A stretch of DNA of 59,488 nucleotides from IMG/VR virus record IMGVR_UViG_3300032296_001520, positions 1-59,488 of that record, one strand, 5' to 3'. How positions within the stretch are numbered: the stretch's first letter is position 1; each line of letters opens with the position of its first letter. Below the pieces are notes generated by a model. That model searched no databases and was not told the DNA's origin. It was given only the letters and a program-made list of their open reading frames with translations. The DNA is from a virus. Taxonomy: Duplodnaviria > Caudoviricetes. Shown here one piece after another: positions 12,894-20,614 of this stretch. Made by a program: the position numbers and the translations under genes.

Positions 12894-13595
12894 TCAATCT
12901 CCTTCAATCCAATCAGCGATGTTACAAGGCCGGGCGCTAGCGGGGATTTGGTTAAGATCACCAGAGGTGCCAGTCGCATTCCCGCTAATACCCGTCACAT
13001 CACCCCGAAGGCCCGTCGCGTCACCCCGGAGGCCCGACACGTCGCCCCGAAGGCCCGTCGCGTCGCCCCGAAGGTTCGTCACATCACCCCGAAGGTATGT
13101 TGCGTCACCCCGGAGGCCCGTCACGTTGCCCCGAAGGTCCGACACGTCGCCCTGAAGGTTCGTCGCGTCGCCCCAAAGGTCCGTCACGTCGCCCCGAAGG
13201 TTCGTCGCGTCGCCCCAAAGGTCCGTCACGTCGCCCCGAAGGCTCGAAACGTCGCCCCGAAGGCCCGTCACGTCGCCCCGAAGGTTCGTCGCGTCGCCCT
13301 GAACACCCGTCACGTTGCCGCGAAGGCCCGACACGTTGCCCCGAAGGCCCGACACATCACCCTGAACACCCGTCACGTTGCCCCGAAGGTCCGACACGTC
13401 GCCCTGAATACCCGACACTTCCCCCCAAAGGCCCGAAACGCTGCCCCGGAGGCCCGTTACGTTGCCCCAAATGTTCGTCACATCGCCTCGAAGGCCCGAC
13501 ACGTGGCCTGTGAGGCGGTCGTGCAACCCTTCAACCCAGCATCCGTCCTTGTAATGATAAATCGCGCTTTGAATACGCTTCAATGGTTTTTTCAT
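12894..13595 (-). CDS. Heptapeptide repeat protein (GDVTGLR)n
   Basis: About 26 repeats of G[DN][VA][TS][GDN]L[RWQ]; start MKKPLK after GGGAG RBS. Confidence 0.8.
   Translation of the reverse strand: MKKPLKRIQSAIYHYKDGCWVEGLHDRLTGHVSGLRGDVTNIWGNVTGLRGSVSGLWGEVSGIQGDVSDLRGNVTGVQGDVSGLRGNVSGLRGNVTGVQGDATNLRGDVTGLRGDVSSLRGDVTDLWGDATNLRGDVTDLWGDATNLQGDVSDLRGNVTGLRGDATYLRGDVTNLRGDATGLRGDVSGLRGDATGLRGDVTGISGNATGTSGDLNQIPASARPCNIADWIEGD
12960..13515. repeat. 21-bp tandem repeat array (coding)
   Basis: Units like GTCACGTCGCCCCGAAGGCCC. Confidence 0.9.
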
Positions 13596-13605
13596 GTTAC
13601 TCTCC

Positions 13606-13923
13606 CTAAGCAAGTCTATATGCGTCTTTAAGACGGTCGCGCGCGGCCCGGCGCTCAGAGCCTTTTAACCGCGGGTCAAGCCGCTCGTTTATCCAGGCGG
13701 TGCGCGCCTCTAGTCGCGCAAAATGCGCCGCCCTAATGGCCGTCACCCGTTGCGTTTCCGCATCCTGCGCCGCTCTGTGCGTTGGGCAGAGAGAATACGG
13801 AAATATAACGCCCGCATATTCGTGCCCCGGAATATGGGAGTAAGGCTCCCAGCCGACACAGCCGCATGGCGAAACATCTTTGGTTGCCTCTAAAATTTGA
13901 GAAGAGGGCGGTGCGTGTGTCAT
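13606..13923 (-). CDS. Hypothetical protein
   Basis: Likely start MTHAPP after AGGAG RBS. Confidence 0.6.
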   Translation of the reverse strand: MTHAPPSSQILEATKDVSPCGCVGWEPYSHIPGHEYAGVIFPYSLCPTHRAAQDAETQRVTAIRAAHFARLEARTAWINERLDPRLKGSERRAARDRLKDAYRLA

Positions 13924-13988
13924 TGTCTTATTCTCCTGTAATGACGATGCGTCCCGCACCTCGTCGGTGTCGCTATCTCGTGTCAGTC

Positions 13989-14342
13989 TCATTGATCTGA
14001 TCCCCTTGCTTGTTCATATTGAGGGCAGTCATCGCTGCATGGCTCGTTTTCAAAGCCCTCATTATCGCGGCCACAATAGCGGCATTGTCCATTTTCATCG
14101 TTGCTGGATTGTGATGCTTCCCCTCGTGCTTTCATAGTCAGCTTTGCGCATTGAAGGACGAAATCATCCGTTACCCGGCCAAATTGAGCATAATTCACAA
14201 TCATGCTTTCAAGGGCTGTCAGCAATTCAGGACCAACCCGCTCCCATCTGCCCAGTGTCTCAATCTCACCTGCTGGCGAAAGCGGAATTAACACCTCTTC
14301 CATCGCGGTAATTATTCTGTCATCCATGTCATTCACTCCCAA
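13989..14342 (-). CDS. Hypothetical protein with C-terminal Cys cluster
   Basis: CRYCGR...PCSDDCP. Confidence 0.65.
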   Translation of the reverse strand: MGVNDMDDRIITAMEEVLIPLSPAGEIETLGRWERVGPELLTALESMIVNYAQFGRVTDDFVLQCAKLTMKARGEASQSSNDENGQCRYCGRDNEGFENEPCSDDCPQYEQARGSDQ

Positions 14343-14549
14343 TTAATCAGGCCATTTGTAGCCAAAGTCTTCAATTAAAATGTCGCGGACCGCCTCCCTA
14401 TCCACGCTGTCACCGCAAAAGTCAGCAGACGCGCGCGAGAGATAGATAGCTGTGGCTTTCTGGATGTGAGCAAATGCAACCCCCATCGGATAGAGACCGC
14501 CCGGCCCGTAGAAGCTATGAACATAACTATAGAATTTATGCATCAGCAA
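14343..14549 (-). CDS. Hypothetical protein
   Basis: F..YV.SFYG.GGLYPM...F.GDSVDRE.VRD motif. Confidence 0.65.
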   Translation of the reverse strand: MLMHKFYSYVHSFYGPGGLYPMGVAFAHIQKATAIYLSRASADFCGDSVDREAVRDILIEDFGYKWPD

Positions 14550-14562
14550 TTCCTCATCGCTC

Positions 14563-14835
14563 CTATCGTGAGAGAAGTGGCGGGCATTCGCCAGTTTGAA
14601 TAAAAAACGCCCGCTGCAAAAATGCTAGGGTATGATCTCCAGATCCCGACAAGCTATCAGAAATACACCTCTCCCGCCAAGCGATATAGCCATCCAAGTC
14701 ATTGACGGGTGTAGCCCCGCTCTGCGCGTCCGCAATGCAATCGAGGCTTAACTGCGCAAAAAATTCACGGGTGGCGTATACAGTCTCCGGGGTGATCTCC
14801 ACCCCGTTGACGATTGTCTTTCGCGGTTCAGTCAT
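14563..14835 (-). CDS. Hypothetical protein
   Basis: AAGGGAG RBS; 90 aa. Confidence 0.7.
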   Translation of the reverse strand: MTEPRKTIVNGVEITPETVYATREFFAQLSLDCIADAQSGATPVNDLDGYIAWRERCISDSLSGSGDHTLAFLQRAFFIQTGECPPLLSR

Positions 14836-15090
14836 TTATCTAAACTCCCTTTTCTCGACTTCATAGCGCGGGTAAGCCCCCACGACCTCAGATCGGCGGC
14901 ACTCCCAAGCGCGCATCACAAAATCGCGCGCCTCGCCAGCCGTCACGCCAATGCCCCGAACATCATAGATATATCGCTTGCTATCGTGCAGCACTTGAAA
15001 GTGTCCGCGCGGCAGCGGCGTGTAATAACCCGGCGAACCTGCGCGGTGCGTTCCCGCATGGTATAACGCAAAATCCAAATTCCTTCCCAT
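14836..15090 (-). CDS. Hypothetical protein
   Basis: Start MGRNLD after GGAGGGG RBS. Confidence 0.65.
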   Translation of the reverse strand: MGRNLDFALYHAGTHRAGSPGYYTPLPRGHFQVLHDSKRYIYDVRGIGVTAGEARDFVMRAWECRRSEVVGAYPRYEVEKREFR

Positions 15091-15091
15091 C

Positions 15092-15355
15092 TCAATTCCC
15101 CTCCTTCGTTTTAACAAAAACATAACCATCGCCCTTGGCATTTGAGCCCTGAACCCAATCGCCGCGCCAGCCACCATAGGGTTGATCCATCTTATCGATT
15201 AAAGCCATTGCAGCTTCCCTGTGCGCTTTGGCGAGATTAAATTCGTGCGGATAGGGGATCGTCATGCTCCCGCCCCAGCATTTCGCCTTAATGCGCGCGC
15301 CCTGGAAGTTAGTCGGGCCAAGAAACCTAGTCTCGATTGCTTTATAGATTGCCAT
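15092..15355 (-). CDS. Conserved early phage protein (AI.T.FLGPTN..GARIKA)
   Basis: Recognisable early-gene motif; directly downstream of hammerhead 1. Confidence 0.75.
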   Translation of the reverse strand: MAIYKAIETRFLGPTNFQGARIKAKCWGGSMTIPYPHEFNLAKAHREAAMALIDKMDQPYGGWRGDWVQGSNAKGDGYVFVKTKEGN

Positions 15356-15369
15356 GTCATTCGCTCCGT

Positions 15370-15429
15370 TGGCCTATCTCATCAGCGATAGTGGGCCATG
15401 CTATCGGACGGGCTTGCGCCCGTTTCGAA
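15370..15429 (-). ncRNA. Hammerhead ribozyme, type II with pseudoknot (copy 1)
   Basis: Minus strand: UC-GAAA-CGGGC-GCAA-GCCCG-UC^-CGAUAG-cAUGGCCca-CUAUCG-CUGAUGA-GA-UA-GGCCA; complete catalytic core; loop UGGCC complementary to 3' GGCCA; predicted cleavage between 15407 and 15406. Confidence 0.9.
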
Positions 15430-15442
15430 TTGCTAATCAGCC

Positions 15443-15646
15443 TCAGTCGATCCAAACAAGCCGCCACGAATAGCAATTGATCGTCACTCGCTTATGTCGC
15501 TTATCCGGCTTGCTTTCGAAGTGCCAAGGGAACCGCGCAAACAGTTTGGTACGCGCCTCATCCTTGTATATCACAACGTCAAATTTAACTGTATCAGGAC
15601 AATCTAGTGCGCGCTCTTTCCGCGCGTAGACGGGGATTAATTCCAT
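15443..15646 (-). CDS. Hypothetical early protein between the two hammerheads
   Basis: 67 aa; AAGGGAG RBS immediately after hammerhead 2. Confidence 0.7.
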   Translation of the reverse strand: MELIPVYARKERALDCPDTVKFDVVIYKDEARTKLFARFPWHFESKPDKRHKRVTINCYSWRLVWID

Positions 15647-15664
15647 TTTCTAAACTCCCTTTTA

Positions 15665-15726
15665 TGGCCTATCTCGTCAGTGGCGGGCAGCCAGCCCCTA
15701 CCAGACGGGCTTGCGCCCGTTTCGAT
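15665..15726 (-). ncRNA. Hammerhead ribozyme, type II with pseudoknot (copy 2)
   Basis: Minus strand: AUC-GAAA-CGGGC-GCAA-GCCCG-UC^-UGGUaGGG-gcUGGCUg-CCCGCCA-CUGACGA-GAU-A-GGCCA; stem I differs in sequence from copy 1 but still pairs; predicted cleavage between 15704 and 15703. Confidence 0.9.
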
Positions 15727-15728
15727 TG

Positions 15729-15938
15729 TTAACTTACGAAAGCGCCGCCCTTGTTCAAAATGCGTTCAATGGCGGGCCATGAATATTCAACGTCACCGCC
15801 CTTGCCGCTTAACAGGCGCACAACGCCAAACGTGTTGCGCGCGCCCGCCATAGCGGCTGGCTGGCCGTCAAGGGTGATGCCCATTGTGTTGGCCTTGTCG
15901 ATCAATTCGAAACGATAATCGCGCGCTGTCTGTGCCAT
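15729..15938 (-). CDS. Hypothetical protein, first gene of the early arm
   Basis: AAGGAG RBS; directly downstream of the promoter region. Confidence 0.7.
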   Translation of the reverse strand: MAQTARDYRFELIDKANTMGITLDGQPAAMAGARNTFGVVRLLSGKGGDVEYSWPAIERILNKGGAFVS

Positions 15939-15974
15939 GTCATTCGCTCCTTATTTTGCGCTTCAAAAAACCAT

Positions 15975-16036
15975 GTTGACGAACGCTTAACATGCGTTGA
16001 CGTTCTGTCAATAGGAAAAATTCACCAAATGTCAAC
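15975..16036 (-). promoter_or_regulatory. Early promoter region (two TTGACA boxes)
   Basis: TGTCAA at about 16006 and 16030 on + (TTGACA on -); repeated GTTGACG heptamers at about 15975 and 15996. Confidence 0.55.
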
Positions 16037-16044
16037 TCCGACAA

Positions 16045-16370
16045 AAATGTAACAAAAATCGCCAATTTGTAACCGAATGTAACATTAATTGTTACGCTCT
16101 CAGCCGCAGTTTTCCGCCGTTGTAACAAATGTAACAGGATTTCAGAATGTATAGCCCTATACCCTTAAAAACACCCATAGGTGTGTTACCAATATAATAC
16201 ACCTCTATATATATAACTATATATCTATATATATTGTTACATTAGTGAATAAACGGCGGATTTCTGGGACTGAGGGTGTAACATCGGAATGATACATTTG
16301 TTACATCCGTTACATTTTCGGTAAGAAACGGCGGATTTACGTTGTTGCGGCGGATCGTGTTTGTTACACT
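16045..16370. repeat. TGTAAC/GTTAC(A) iteron-like array around an AT-rich core; putative replication origin
   Basis: About 12 copies, mainly TGTAAC to the left and GTTACA to the right of TATATATATAACTATATATCTATATATAT; AAACGGCGGATTT twice. Confidence 0.7.
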
Positions 16371-17009
16371 GGCGCTTGATGTGCGCTAAAACGCACTGGG
16401 AGGCCTCTGGAGCGCGATCTGGAAGCAGCGCATCATCGGCGCGCGCGCGCATCCGGCCTGCGTTCATGCGCTGGCCGTCGCGCCGGATCTGACAGCGTTG
16501 TCATACTCAGTGCCGCCCAGCGATTTTCCCCCGGAGATTTCCCGCGCGAGATGATCCGCTATGATCGACCGTCATCGTCCCGGACAATCACGCCACCTCA
16601 ACAAGCCGAACGCATGCGCGCCCGGCAATGCCAGCCGTCAAGGTCACGGCAAAATAACGCCAGCCGACCGCGACGTGCGACAGTGCCCCTGTGACCGCGC
16701 GCCACCCCCCACGGAGGCACAAATGCAGGGACGGGCGCGATTTCATATCGTATATACCCCTCTCAATCCGTGTTTACGCAGAAAAAATTATGGCTGGAGG
16801 GGCGGCCCCCCACCCCCTGAAAATTGAGTTGAGGCGGGGGGTGTTTGATTTTGGGTTGTTAAATTTGGGATTTTGAAAATTTGGGGTTCGCATAGCCCCC
16901 CTCTTTACATTTGGGTTGGAAGTGTCTTATGTTGTTCTGGAGCGGCGCTGTGGTCGATGTGATGTTCCCTTCCGTCTATTGGAGCGGTGCCGCTCAACCG
17001 GAGAAAAGA

Positions 17010-17594
17010 ATGGCTGACGACGAAGAGGCCGCTTTAGATTTGTGGGATCGCACTGTGATGGACGGTGTGAACGGCGACACGAAGATGACGCCGGACGCTA
17101 TTTTTGTGCGTGAGTATGTTCGCACGGGCGATGAGGTTTTGGCTGTGAGTCGTGCTGGATTGAATGACAGTCGCTATGCGTTGAGTGTGGTGGCGGAGTA
17201 TCATTTGGCGCGTCCTGAGATACAGGCTGCTATATTGATTCAGCGGGAGTTATTTAAGGAATTGGAGACATCGCGTCTTCGGTTGATGGGGGGATATTCG
17301 CGAGAGTTGATTTTGGATGATTTGGAGAAGTTGCATCAGAAGGCGAGTGATGACGGGGCGTATGCGCCGGCGATAAGTGCGAAGAAGGTACAGGCTCAGT
17401 TGCTGGGATTTTTGGATCAGACGGTGAATATTCGGCATTCGTTGGAGCCGCGAGAGATGACGACGGACGAGCTTCGTCGTCGGATTGCGGATTTGAGTGG
17501 GGTGGCGGGCGAGCTGCCGCCGCCGGAGGTTGATAGGCCGGCGATAATCGAGGCTGAGTATGTTGAGGTGAAGGGGAATGACGATGCGGTATAG
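17010..17594 (+). CDS. terS: Terminase small subunit (putative)
   Basis: FVREY...A..RAG......A...L..PEIQAAI HTH pattern; upstream of TerL; GGAG RBS before ATG 17010. Confidence 0.7.
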   Translation: MADDEEAALDLWDRTVMDGVNGDTKMTPDAIFVREYVRTGDEVLAVSRAGLNDSRYALSVVAEYHLARPEIQAAILIQRELFKELETSRLRLMGGYSRELILDDLEKLHQKASDDGAYAPAISAKKVQAQLLGFLDQTVNIRHSLEPREMTTDELRRRIADLSGVAGELPPPEVDRPAIIEAEYVEVKGNDDAV

Positions 17595-17832
17595 TATTGG
17601 GTTTATGGGCGGGTTTTCGGATGGCGATTTTTCGGCGGCTCTGGCGGCGGATGGCGATGAGACGACGCTGACACTGACGAAGGGTGCTGTTTTTAATGCG
17701 TGGCTGACGGAAGATTGGCGGATTAAGCTGCTTGAGGGTCCGGTTGGCGAGGTTCCTGCGTGTGTTATGAACCGGAAGAAGGTGCATGAGCTGGTGGATG
17801 CGTGGCTGGACGGCGTGGAGTTTGACGTGTGA
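17578..17832 (+). CDS. Hypothetical protein
   Basis: ORF track; coupled overlaps. Confidence 0.55.
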   Translation: MTMRYSIGFMGGFSDGDFSAALAADGDETTLTLTKGAVFNAWLTEDWRIKLLEGPVGEVPACVMNRKKVHELVDAWLDGVEFDV

Positions 17833-18089
17833 GTAAGCCGGATCTGAAGGTTGTCGGGGAGATTAGCCCACCGGATTACCGTGATGCGGTGAAGATGCTG
17901 CGTAATTTGGCGGATGACATTGAGGCGGGGGAATTTGGTGCGGTGAATTCGCTTGTGCTGGTTCGTTTTGGAGATAATGGCTTGCAGGTTCATGTAGGTG
18001 GGCGCGATTCGGACTTCGGGACTGCGATGTTGCTGTTGACGGCGGGTGTTAACAAGCTGACTGGGCCGCTGTTAGAGCACGGCGAGTGA
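17829..18089 (+). CDS. Hypothetical protein
   Basis: LRNLADDIEAGEFG motif; coupled to TerL. Confidence 0.65.
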   Translation: MSKPDLKVVGEISPPDYRDAVKMLRNLADDIEAGEFGAVNSLVLVRFGDNGLQVHVGGRDSDFGTAMLLLTAGVNKLTGPLLEHGE

Positions 18090-20614
18090 GCGACGACGCT
18101 GGCACACTGAAGGCGCTGATGGAGGAGCTGCTGCTGCGGGAGGAGGCGCAGCAGTCTCTAGCGAAGTACATTGAATATGTGAGCGGGCTGAAGCCGCCGA
18201 AGCACATCGAATTGCTGTGTGAGAAGCTGGAAGCCGTAGCGGAAGGTAAGATTAAGCGCCTGATGATCAGTATGCCACCGGGGCATGCGAAGGCTCTGGC
18301 GCTCGATACACCGATACCGACGCCAGATGGCTGGCGCGTGATGGGCGAACTGCGTGTTGGTGATTATGTGTTTGATGAGAAGGGTGCGCCGACGCGGGTT
18401 GTTGGCGTCTCTGAGGTTTGGCGAGACCGTCCGGTGTATCGCGTGACGACGGCTGAGGGTGATGAGATTATTGCGGATGAGGCTCATGAGTGGACTGTGC
18501 GCCGCTGTCGCAAGCGCGATGTTTGGAAGACGTATGAAACAGGCGAATTGTATCGCAAGCAGGAGGAAGGGCAGCGGCCAGCGAAGGTCATGACTGCGGG
18601 AGCCCTTCAGCTGCAGCCGAAAGAATTTTTGATTCATCCGTATGTTTTGGGTTGCTGGCTTGGTGATGGAACATCGACGACGGCTCAATTTACGTCGATG
18701 GACGAAGAGATTATTGAACGCCTGCACGCGATTGAAGGTGGCGATTTAAGGATTGCGACGCAGCGCAGGGGCCGGGCGATTGCGTTTAGGATTGGTCCGA
18801 ACGGATTGATGGATCGGGAGGCGTGTCTGGCGACGCGGCTGCGTAAAATCGGCGTTATGGGTAATAAGCACATACCAGATACGTATTTCTGGGGGTCAGA
18901 AGAGCAGAGATGGGATTTGCTGCATGGCCTGATGGACACGGACGGGACGGTGAGCAAAGCGGGGCAGGCGACGTTTTATGCATCGAATGAGCGTCTAGCG
19001 CGCGATTTTCAGCAGTTAGCGTTTTCACTGGGGTTGAAACCTAAGCTGTCGTCGGGGCAGTCGAAGCTATATGGAGTTCAGCATAAAACGTGCTGGCGGG
19101 TTTCGTTTTACTCGGCGAATGCGGCTTGGTTGCCAAGGAAACGGAAGCGCGCGCGTGACGCCGATTACTATAAATATCGTCATCTGAAGTTTGAGCCCGC
19201 TGGATTTGCCGATACGGTGTGTATTGAGGTTGAGGCGGAGTCTCACCTGTTTTTGTGTGGGCGGTCGATGGTGCCGACGCATAACAGTTTCACGGCGTCG
19301 CAGCACTTTCCGGCGTGGTATTTGAGTAAATACGGGAAGAAGAACCTGATCTGCGCGACGCACACGCAGGAGCTGTCGGATAGCTTTGGTTTGAAGGTGC
19401 GTAATCTGATGAAATCGGACGAGCACAGGAAGGTTTTCCCGGAGGCTGGGATCAGTGCGGATAAGACGGCGGCTGGCGAGTGGATGACGCTGGATGATGG
19501 GTCGTATAAGGCGACCGCTGTGGGCGCGTCGGTAACGGGTCGTCGCGGTCACATGCTGATCGGGGATGATTTGCTGTCGGGGATTGAGGCGGCGGAGAGT
19601 GAGAGTCACCGCAAGAAACTCTGGGCATGGTATAACAGCGATTTCTATACGCGGCGTGTGGACGATGACACGGCGATCATCCTGATTGGGACGCGCTGGC
19701 ACTTGGGCGATCACTTCGGGATGCTGGATCAGGAAGAGCGGGACGGCACGGGCGAGAAGTGGGAGCGTGTAATCCTGCCAGCGCTGGCTTTGGAGAACGA
19801 TCCTCTGGGAAGAGAGCCGGGCGAGGCGTTGTGGGAGTCGCAGTTTAGCCGAGAGAACCTTGAGAAGATCCGGCAGCGCTCATCGACGACGGCGCGGATG
19901 TGGTCGTCGTTGTATCAGCAGAACCCGGTGGTGGATTCGGGCGGCATTATTGACGGAACGTGGTTTAAGTGGTGGCGGCAGCCTGAGCCGCCGAAAATCC
20001 AGTATGTCATTCAGGCATGGGATACGGCGCTGACGGCGAATAAAACTTCCGCATATAGCGCGAGCACGACGTGGGGCGTGTTTGAGGACGATAACGGAAT
20101 TCCGAATATCATATTGCTATCGGCATGGCGGGATCGGGCTGAATGGCCAGTGCTGCGGCGGATGGTGCAGCGAATGGCGAATGATTACCGAGACGATAAC
20201 TATAAGCTGCCGATTAAGCCGAAGTCTGGGCGCAAGCCGGATACGATTTTGGTAGAGGCTAAGGCGAACGGGCAGATGCTGATCTTGGATCTCGCGAGGG
20301 CGGGGATTGTGGCGACGCCGTTTAACCCAGATAAGCACGGCGATAAGATTGCGCGCGTTCGGTTAGTCACGGATTTGATTGAGAACGGGCGGGTATGGCT
20401 TCCGGCAGTAGGCCCGACGTATCAGCAGTTGCGGAAATGGGCTGAGGAATTTTTGCAGCAGTGCGTGCAGTTCCCGGCTGCGGATTCGCGTGACTGGGTG
20501 GACACGATGACGATGGCGCTGTTGAGGATTAAACAGTCGGGCTGGGTCTCGAATACGGAAAACCCGTATGAGGAGGTTTATGATACGCCAAGAGAGGCTG
20601 TCGCGTTTTATTGA
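18086..20614 (+). CDS. terL: Terminase large subunit with intein
   Basis: RLMISMPPGHAK|S Walker A, TGRRG..LIGDD Walker B, IGTRWH.GD, LYQQNP, QAWDTA nuclease and D.VDT.TMAL motifs. Confidence 0.95.
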   Translation: MSDDAGTLKALMEELLLREEAQQSLAKYIEYVSGLKPPKHIELLCEKLEAVAEGKIKRLMISMPPGHAKALALDTPIPTPDGWRVMGELRVGDYVFDEKGAPTRVVGVSEVWRDRPVYRVTTAEGDEIIADEAHEWTVRRCRKRDVWKTYETGELYRKQEEGQRPAKVMTAGALQLQPKEFLIHPYVLGCWLGDGTSTTAQFTSMDEEIIERLHAIEGGDLRIATQRRGRAIAFRIGPNGLMDREACLATRLRKIGVMGNKHIPDTYFWGSEEQRWDLLHGLMDTDGTVSKAGQATFYASNERLARDFQQLAFSLGLKPKLSSGQSKLYGVQHKTCWRVSFYSANAAWLPRKRKRARDADYYKYRHLKFEPAGFADTVCIEVEAESHLFLCGRSMVPTHNSFTASQHFPAWYLSKYGKKNLICATHTQELSDSFGLKVRNLMKSDEHRKVFPEAGISADKTAAGEWMTLDDGSYKATAVGASVTGRRGHMLIGDDLLSGIEAAESESHRKKLWAWYNSDFYTRRVDDDTAIILIGTRWHLGDHFGMLDQEERDGTGEKWERVILPALALENDPLGREPGEALWESQFSRENLEKIRQRSSTTARMWSSLYQQNPVVDSGGIIDGTWFKWWRQPEPPKIQYVIQAWDTALTANKTSAYSASTTWGVFEDDNGIPNIILLSAWRDRAEWPVLRRMVQRMANDYRDDNYKLPIKPKSGRKPDTILVEAKANGQMLILDLARAGIVATPFNPDKHGDKIARVRLVTDLIENGRVWLPAVGPTYQQLRKWAEEFLQQCVQFPAADSRDWVDTMTMALLRIKQSGWVSNTENPYEEVYDTPREAVAFY
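18293..19285 (+). mobile_element. Class 3 intein (331 aa) with LAGLIDADG homing endonuclease
   Basis: Starts ALALDTPIPTPDGW, block B ADEAHEW, block F TVCIEV, ends PTHN|S; PYVLGCWLGDG and LLHGLMDTDG endonuclease motifs. Confidence 0.92.

Follow-up and report, generated by a model that had tools for sequence, protein, structure and literature searches.

The complete 59,488-bp genome of an uncultured tailed phage (the window, that is, the whole stretch of DNA analysed here) carries, in consecutive gaps between genes, two hammerhead ribozymes which probably cut a polycistronic phage RNA into single-gene mRNAs, a reading to which we give about two chances in three. Judged by sequence, both of them, here termed copies A and B, are genuine type II hammerheads with a pseudoknot and are predicted to be self-cleaving. 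In the window and in other phage loci alike, such ribozymes fill the space that separates the stop codon of one gene from the ribosome binding site of the following one. The layout has been described in phages since 2011 and the locus adds little that is new on the ribozymes themselves; the one new point is a previously undescribed bipartite hairpin that alternates with hammerheads within operons.

Genomic setting of the locus

The genome has direct terminal repeats. Its plus strand encodes, from about 16.9 kb, the large terminase, the portal and further structural proteins, while the minus strand, read leftwards from about 15.9 kb, carries small ORFs together with genes for two DNA methyltransferases and an HNH endonuclease, and goes on across the genome ends with those for a RecE-like exonuclease, a helicase and a primase. 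The minus-strand arm starts in a divergent control region at about 16000-16900, and the hammerheads occupy the first two intergenic gaps of this non-structural arm; early expression of the leftward operon is plausible. A search for sequencing runs that contain this phage returned one DNA run, which may be the source of the assembly, and no RNA run, a blank that has no bearing on expression. A consensus scan of positions 13500-17200 for promoters and terminators gave sites that were not above the level found in shuffled sequence. Megablast of positions 14000-18000 against the phage collection found no near-identical phage; by the portal, the nearest cultured relatives, at most 41% identical, are phages of Pelagibacter, Roseobacter and Caulobacter along with freshwater phages.

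The three ORFs between which the ribozymes lie, with the Shine-Dalgarno elements of the second and third, are:

15729..15938, minus strand: first ORF of the leftward operon, 69 aa (ORF list)
15655..15659, minus strand: Shine-Dalgarno GGGAG of ORF67 (sequence)
15443..15646, minus strand: ORF67, 67 aa, uncharacterised small protein (HMMER relatives, alignment A3)
15364..15367, minus strand: Shine-Dalgarno GGAG of the 87-aa ORF (sequence)
15092..15355, minus strand: third ORF, 87 aa, PHROG 3199, uncharacterised (PHROG match, 1.7e-16)

The 69-aa ORF ends with a TAA at 15731-15729, 2 nt ahead of hammerhead A; it has twelve relatives in IMG/VR at 83-90% amino-acid identity and matched no Pfam family. 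Relatives of the 87-aa ORF are present in loci L042-L047 and L057. The Shine-Dalgarno of the latter ORF is contained in an 18-mer, GGAGCGAATGACATGGCA, a second copy of which lies ahead of the 69-aa ORF (15950-15933).

ORF67, judged by its sequence, is a real gene: a full HMMER scan of the representative library recovered 286 relatives at E<=0.001, and it is therefore not an orphan. The family pattern in alignment A3 reads YARxEPTxD...DVVxYRD...ARFPW...NCxxWxLxW. No PHROG or Pfam family was matched, a peptide-pattern scan of IMG/VR yielded no relatives, a word-index search returned nothing besides the ORF67 protein itself, and the only match that tblastn gave in the phage collection was to Caulobacter phage CcrPW (37.5% identity).

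Anatomy of the two hammerheads

The two ribozymes and their elements, listed in the 5' to 3' order of the RNA, are:

15661..15729, minus strand: hammerhead A, type II with pseudoknot (Rfam RF02276, the R1 model described below, sequence reading)
15726-15724, minus strand: copy A, 5' strand of stem II, AUC (sequence)
15723-15721, minus strand: copy A, GAA (sequence)
15720-15705, minus strand: copy A, stem III, ACGGGC-GCAA-GCCCGU (sequence)
15704, minus strand: copy A, C17, with predicted cleavage between 15704 and 15703
15703-15681, minus strand: copy A, stem I (sequence)
15680-15674, minus strand: copy A, core CUGACGA (sequence)
15673-15671, minus strand: copy A, 3' strand of stem II, GAU (sequence)
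15670-15665, minus strand: copy A, tail AGGCCA (sequence)
15366..15432, minus strand: hammerhead B, type II with pseudoknot (R1 model, sequence reading)
15429-15427, minus strand: copy B, 5' strand of stem II, UUC (sequence)
15426-15424, minus strand: copy B, GAA (sequence)
15423-15408, minus strand: copy B, stem III, the same as that of copy A (sequence)
15407, minus strand: copy B, C17, with predicted cleavage between 15407 and 15406
15406-15386, minus strand: copy B, stem I, CGAUAG/CUAUCG with loop CAUGGCCCA (sequence)
15385-15379, minus strand: copy B, core CUGAUGA (sequence)
15378-15376, minus strand: copy B, 3' strand of stem II, GAU (sequence)
15375-15370, minus strand: copy B, tail AGGCCA (sequence)

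Each copy has three helices about its core, of which I and III end in loops and II is open, and agrees throughout with the hammerhead consensus (C3-U4-G5-A6-N7-G8-A9, G12-A13-A14, A15.1-U16.1 and a nucleotide other than G at position 17). Stem II is GAU/AUC in copy A and GA/UC with a U.U mismatch in copy B, the core-adjacent pair G10.1-C11.1 being intact in both. The stem I sequences of the two copies are wholly different, yet paired in each, and the loop of stem I, UGGCU in copy A and UGGCC in copy B, is predicted to form a pseudoknot of 5 pairs with the GGCCA of the tail. Between the tail and the next Shine-Dalgarno there are 3-5 nt: that of ORF67 follows the tail of copy A by 5 nt and precedes the ATG by 8 nt, and the start codon of the 87-aa ORF lies 8 nt beyond its GGAG.

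These features had been described in a first-pass annotation, which claimed two full minus-strand hammerheads with divergent but paired stems I, loops complementary to a 3' GGCCA, and ends a few nucleotides short of the next ribosome binding site; our reading of the sequence agrees with it in every element listed. Its assignment of both copies to the pseudoknotted type II class is likewise borne out by the complete cores, together with the model scores and the covariation among relatives given below.

The exact 21-mer common to the two copies has 2 matches in the window as against 0 expected from 100 shuffles, and the 16-nt pattern of core plus tail has 2 as against 0.04 expected.

Detection by covariance models

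The Rfam type II search proposed in the first-pass annotation upheld one copy: RF02276 scored copy A at 39.1 bits, above its cut-off of 37, and did not report copy B even at E<=10. Over the whole window at E<=5 the Rfam models returned only hammerhead A and one chance microRNA-like match. A Twister-P5 match of 15.3 bits inside the 69-aa ORF we take to be chance.

We built a covariance model, R1, from 15 hammerheads of other phages, the window copies being left out; these 15 were picked by eye, for the pseudoknot form with a long stem I and a 3' tail, from 31 distinct sequences. With filters off, R1 scored copy A at 66.2 bits (E 3.3e-15) and copy B at 63.9 bits (E 1.4e-14), as against 11.3 bits for the next best match in the window, although these scores are partly circular in that the source sequences were chosen for sharing the 21-mer of the window. 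Loci that have the 21-mer and lack the core score at most 33.6 bits with R1, so that about 30 bits come from the remainder of the ribozyme. In 11 other loci the Rfam model passed 4 sites, whereas R1 found 15, in seven of those loci; hence the Rfam type II model is insensitive for this group of hammerheads. Relative to the RF02276 group, the present ribozymes have a fixed stem III variant, and copy B falls below threshold. The failure of Rfam to report copy B, together with the U.U mismatch in its stem II, is an observation that runs against a role in RNA processing.

Hammerheads of the same group in other phages

The 21-mer occurs in 40 IMG/VR loci, in all of which the stem III variant is exactly the same, while stems I and II differ among them. 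The 41 matches comprise 31 distinct sequences with a core downstream, 5 duplicates, 1 cut by the end of its locus and 4 without a core (L005, L011, L037 and L038). In an alignment of 15 sequences, 92.4% of the cells pair, compared with 75.8% in shuffles, none of 500 of which reached the observed value; stem III is invariant here by construction and the covariation covers stems I and II and the pseudoknot. In these 15 relatives 12 of the 21 pairs, including 4 of the 6 pseudoknot pairs, change on both sides. Such compensatory changes keep the core, the helices and the pseudoknot, which shows selection on the structure of the ribozyme and not on sequence identity alone.

Tandem arrangements recur: 10 of the 40 loci have two to four hammerheads on the same strand a few hundred nucleotides apart, with four in a row in L026 (at 8470, 8810, 9093 and 9641). 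For their position relative to genes we counted 45 non-duplicate hammerheads, namely 43 of the 52 R1 matches and the two window copies, with six duplicates and three low-scoring sites that have only the 21-mer left out. A start codon with a Shine-Dalgarno, opening an ORF of at least 40 aa, lies within 200 nt of 42 of the 45. The distance from the end of the core to that start codon has a median of 27.5 nt and falls at 15-44 nt in 37 of the 42; it is 27 nt for copy A and 23 nt for copy B. In the other loci stem II often touches or overlaps the stop codon of the gene upstream. This fixed spacing between ribozyme and start codon points to a role in RNA.

Cleavage of a polycistronic RNA as the probable role

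Our favoured reading runs as follows. As the polycistronic RNA emerges, each ribozyme would fold and cut after the GUC, and the cleavage products would separate at once, because only the 2-3 bp of stem II would join them. The upstream product would then end in the GNRA-capped hairpin of stem III with a 2',3'-cyclic phosphate, while the 5'-OH end of the downstream product would be formed by the hairpin of stem I, with the ribosome binding site a few nucleotides further on. Single-gene mRNAs for the 69-aa ORF, for ORF67 and for the 87-aa ORF onward would thereby be produced, and the stability and translation of each would be uncoupled from those of its neighbours, an effect equivalent to that of the host RNase III cuts between the early genes of T7.

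RNase III cuts the T7 early mRNA between cistrons, and the upstream message is left with a 3'-terminal hairpin; the ends that this enzyme leaves are a 5'-phosphate and a 3'-OH. The likeness to the present locus would lie in the functional slot, with a polycistronic mRNA cut between cistrons and an upstream 3' hairpin. The hammerhead reaction, in contrast, would be catalysed by the RNA without a host enzyme and is predicted to leave a 5'-OH and a 2',3'-cyclic phosphate. A second parallel is RiboJ, an engineered insulator derived from a satellite RNA hammerhead and used in synthetic biology. There too a ribozyme placed just ahead of the ribosome binding site removes the upstream RNA context and leaves a 5' hairpin, whereas the elements described here are natural and lie between cistrons.

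Several lines in the earlier literature bear directly on this role. [quoted passage not shown] The same source reports cleavage in vivo for a triple hammerhead arrangement cloned from Agrobacterium, and describes for most type II members a pseudoknot in which loop I pairs with the 3' tail over 4 pairs or more. It also gives a rate above 1.2 per min for a pseudoknotted ribozyme of type II whose stem II is a single pair, so that a short stem II does not stand in the way of fast cleavage (PMC3088659). The clusters described in these passages resemble the present one in being of type II with a loop I-tail pseudoknot, in having several ribozymes that flank varying genes, and in the proposed processing role and the speculation on circular RNA; they differ in belonging to prophages, while the genome here is that of an uncultured free phage with terminal repeats. 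A review (Weinberg 2019, PMC6765202) repeats the processing idea and, where it turns to phage hammerheads, calls their purpose unresolved.

The first-pass annotation had proposed that the phage cuts its early polycistron in this manner. That proposal is still the best reading, with support from the motifs, their position and the tandem copies. Structure and covariation are observed as well, and from these observations we infer cleavage in vivo and an effect on expression. It is not new: the earlier interpretation, its boldest part included, is a rediscovery of published ideas, because both processing and the formation of spliced or circular RNAs by cleavage and subsequent ligation had already been proposed in Perreault 2011 (PMC3088659).

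Possible exchange of small genes at the ribozyme junctions

The hammerhead with its adjoining translation start might alternatively persist as a recombination site for swaps of small genes, with cleavage tolerated or secondary. We consider this unlikely as the principal explanation, though the junctions do have the look of boundaries between modules and several comparisons agree with it. Copy B and the start region that follows (15428-15350) are 94.9% identical over 79 nt to locus L004, none of whose five ORFs matches the window. In 11 of the 12 relatives of the 69-aa gene, nucleotide homology to the window ends at 15727/15728, the start of hammerhead A, and in the remaining one (L052) it ends at 15730. 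The gap between the homologues of the 69-aa and 87-aa genes is 63 nt in L047 as against 371 nt here, the 371-nt stretch in the window consisting of hammerhead A, ORF67 and hammerhead B, and L046 and L048 have other small ORFs in this slot. The distribution of the exact 21-mer over 40 loci with differing stems I and II is also of the kind expected on this account. Mere junctions, on the other hand, do not explain why the core nucleotides are kept and why compensatory changes preserve the helices and the pseudoknot, and the fixed distance to the start codons, too, suggests a role in RNA. The two roles are compatible with each other, and neither excludes the other.

Exchange had been invoked in the first-pass annotation in a more specific form, as a mobile cassette of ribozymes and gene. 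The comparison gives no support to a conserved cassette: an HMM made from alignment A3, run over 19,108 stop-to-stop ORFs of 177 loci, recovered only the window's own ORF67. The ORF67 family thus adjoins no other hammerhead in these 177 loci, and there is no conserved hammerhead-ORF67 unit.

Cleavage as a possible conditional switch

It is less probable still that cleavage is tied to upstream translation or to the conditions of the cell and so lowers or times the expression of a neighbouring gene. The geometry would allow for such coupling. A distance of 2 nt in copy A and of 13 nt in copy B separates the ribozyme from the stop codon of the gene before it, so that a terminating ribosome would cover the 5' half of the ribozyme; the Shine-Dalgarno follows the pseudoknot tail by 3-5 nt, and folding and ribosome binding may therefore compete. 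Regulated hammerheads are discussed in parts of Perreault 2011 (PMC3088659). However, an aptamer-like extra domain is absent from both copies, and the motif is minimal, like the constitutively fast pseudoknotted forms that the same source describes (PMC3088659).

A proposed circular coding RNA

The boldest part of the first-pass annotation held that double cleavage frees a circularisable mRNA:

15407..15703, minus strand: predicted 297-nt RNA after double cleavage (sequence geometry)

Its geometry was correct. The predicted 297-nt RNA contains the whole of the 67-aa ORF and its ribosome binding site, would end on one side in the stem I hairpin with a 5'-OH and on the other in that of stem III with a 2',3'-cyclic phosphate, and on ligation of these ends would rebuild a complete chimeric hammerhead. 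The joining, by the chimeric hammerhead itself or by a host ligase of the RtcB type, would produce an exonuclease-resistant circular mRNA for ORF67. RtcB is common in bacteria (10 of 14 reference genomes had it in a control search), and tandem ribozymes yield circles in retrozymes (de la Pena 2020, PMC7761336). As in the retrozymes and viroid-like RNAs treated in passages of that paper, the two hammerheads here share one polarity, are spaced by a few hundred nucleotides and would produce ligatable ends (PMC7761336).

The resemblance does not extend further. The ribozymes in those passages are of types I and III, set in repeated units and producing stable, rod-like and mostly non-coding circles (PMC7761336), whereas the present ones are of type II with a stem II of 2-3 bp, enclose a unique protein gene and delimit an RNA that is not unusually structured; the two copies share only the 21-mer and the 16-nt core plus tail, and no repeated unit is found. 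The fold of the 297-nt RNA has a predicted energy of -94.2 kcal/mol, compared with -89.5 +/- 5.5 in shuffles (z -0.85), and is not rod-like, with the ends placed in separate hairpins. As type II ends are bridged by stem II alone, a stem of only 2-3 bp would not hold the cleaved ends together, and a rebuilt active hammerhead would recut the circle. A phage-encoded RtcB was looked for and none was found. Perreault 2011 states, with data not shown, that neither circular nor spliced products of clustered prophage hammerheads were detected (in the relevant passage of PMC3088659), and literature searches found no paper reporting a hammerhead circle from a phage. A circular ORF67 mRNA, which none of our results either supports or refutes, ranks as very improbable. 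The related idea of an endless ORF on the circle was dropped: 297 is divisible by 3, yet stop codons number 6, 5 and 7 in the three frames, which makes endless translation impossible.

A bipartite hairpin at the same junction

Hammerheads are absent from all twelve relatives of the 69-aa gene and also from L042-L045, four loci that carry a relative of the 87-aa gene. In 8 of the twelve, a conserved bipartite hairpin, about 52 nt long, makes up the spacer that follows the 69-aa gene instead, and in L046 and L057 this hairpin sits after one extra ORF. The junction is a plain spacer in L049 and forms a different simple hairpin in L052; a hammerhead is thus dispensable at this place, a point against the reading as RNA processing.

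The lower stem of the bipartite hairpin contains the upstream stop codon and two conserved A.C mismatches; it is followed by an internal loop (3x3) and by an upper stem of 7-9 bp that covaries, with UGCCAAU and then the ribosome binding site on the 3' side. No Rfam family matched it at E<=1. A model of the hairpin, R2, found 52 sites in 53 other loci and no site in the window or in L002-L041. In the 52 sites 89.2% of the cells pair, as against 77.8% in shuffles, and 11 of the 18 pairs change on both sides, figures that favour R2 because the alignment was fitted to it.

With its internal loop the hairpin recalls in shape the RNase III sites of the T7 early genes. By our analysis it is most likely a protein-dependent processing site able to replace a hammerhead, with a slight chance of its being a new ribozyme. 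What follows the one conserved 69-aa gene thus varies between a hammerhead, the bipartite hairpin, a different hairpin and no element at all, which constitutes a natural comparison. If it can be expressed, such a series of junctions could show what a phage gains from self-cleavage between cistrons, the role of many phage hammerheads being one that reviews, in their passages on the subject, still call unresolved (PMC6765202); it could also decide whether in the hairpin we have a counterpart that depends on protein or a ribozyme of a new kind.

That hairpins and hammerheads alternate at these junctions suggests that the junction needs an element for RNA processing or stability. A stronger version, in which the two are interchangeable punctuation modules and the hairpin is a new self-cleaving RNA or a dedicated processing signal as opposed to a passive RNase III site, is a tentative proposal that we think improbable. 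Should the hairpin cleave itself, it would have been found as twister, pistol and hatchet were, through association with hammerheads. Both elements occur together in four loci: two bipartite hairpins are followed by three hammerheads in L134, one by a hammerhead in each of L089 and L133, and three are accompanied by one hammerhead in L146.

A bipartite hairpin at operon junctions

A hairpin element of approximately 52 nucleotides, bipartite and previously undescribed, lies after a stop codon and ahead of the following ribosome-binding site in relatives of this phage. There it occupies the same junction as the type II ribozyme hammerhead A in the window, and in some operons it alternates with hammerheads. 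Its occurrences include the following, in the coordinates of the respective phage loci:

L046, 1343-1403: bipartite hairpin
L047, 2705-2765: bipartite hairpin
L048, 2705-2765: bipartite hairpin
L134, 9304-9361 and 9559-9623: two bipartite hairpins
L146, 1872-1935, 2837-2900 and 3293-3357: three bipartite hairpins

Both stems are backed by covariation, and a comparison with Rfam recovered no match at E<=1. The element is a candidate for a site of the RNase III type, or else for a processing RNA of a new sort.

Variant hammerheads and coreless sites

Among the hammerheads with the same stem III, certain versions have a variant core that reads CCGAUGA, with C in position 4, or CUGACAA, with A in position 8:

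L006, 2189-2257: core-variant hammerhead
L008, 6297-6366: core-variant hammerhead
L022, 3503-3573: core-variant hammerhead
L026, 8470-8533: core-variant hammerhead
L014, 13096-13164: core-variant hammerhead

Many of these same-stem-III hammerheads also have an additional U between A9 and stem II. The two core types may be natural variants of the kind discussed in Perreault 2011 (PMC3088659).

The exact 21-mer common to both window hammerheads comprises GAAAC, stem III and GUC. In 4 of the 40 loci with this 21-mer there is no CUGAYGA core within 60 nucleotides downstream:

L005, 1259-1324: coreless site
L011, 2094-2142: coreless site
L037, 471-491: coreless site
L038, 98-151: coreless site

Possible explanations are decay of a hammerhead, a split ribozyme or some other role for the hairpin.

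Other features of the genome

The 18-mer GGAGCGAATGACATGGCA, which comprises a Shine-Dalgarno sequence, a spacer, ATG and one further codon, is found upstream of both the 69-aa and 87-aa ORFs:

15950-15933, minus strand: 18-mer, first copy
15367-15350, minus strand: 18-mer, second copy

Close variants of it precede several genes of locus L004.

GTAACA/TGTTAC hexamers, several forming close inverted pairs, crowd the divergent control region (16040-16360), where T and A also alternate in an AT-rich stretch near 16200-16232. The hexamers and the TA run look like operator or iteron sites.

The protein encoded at 18086-20614 is a large terminase at its C-terminal end, and its N-terminal region matches primase, helicase-loader and P-loop families; at 842 residues it is unusually long for a terminase.
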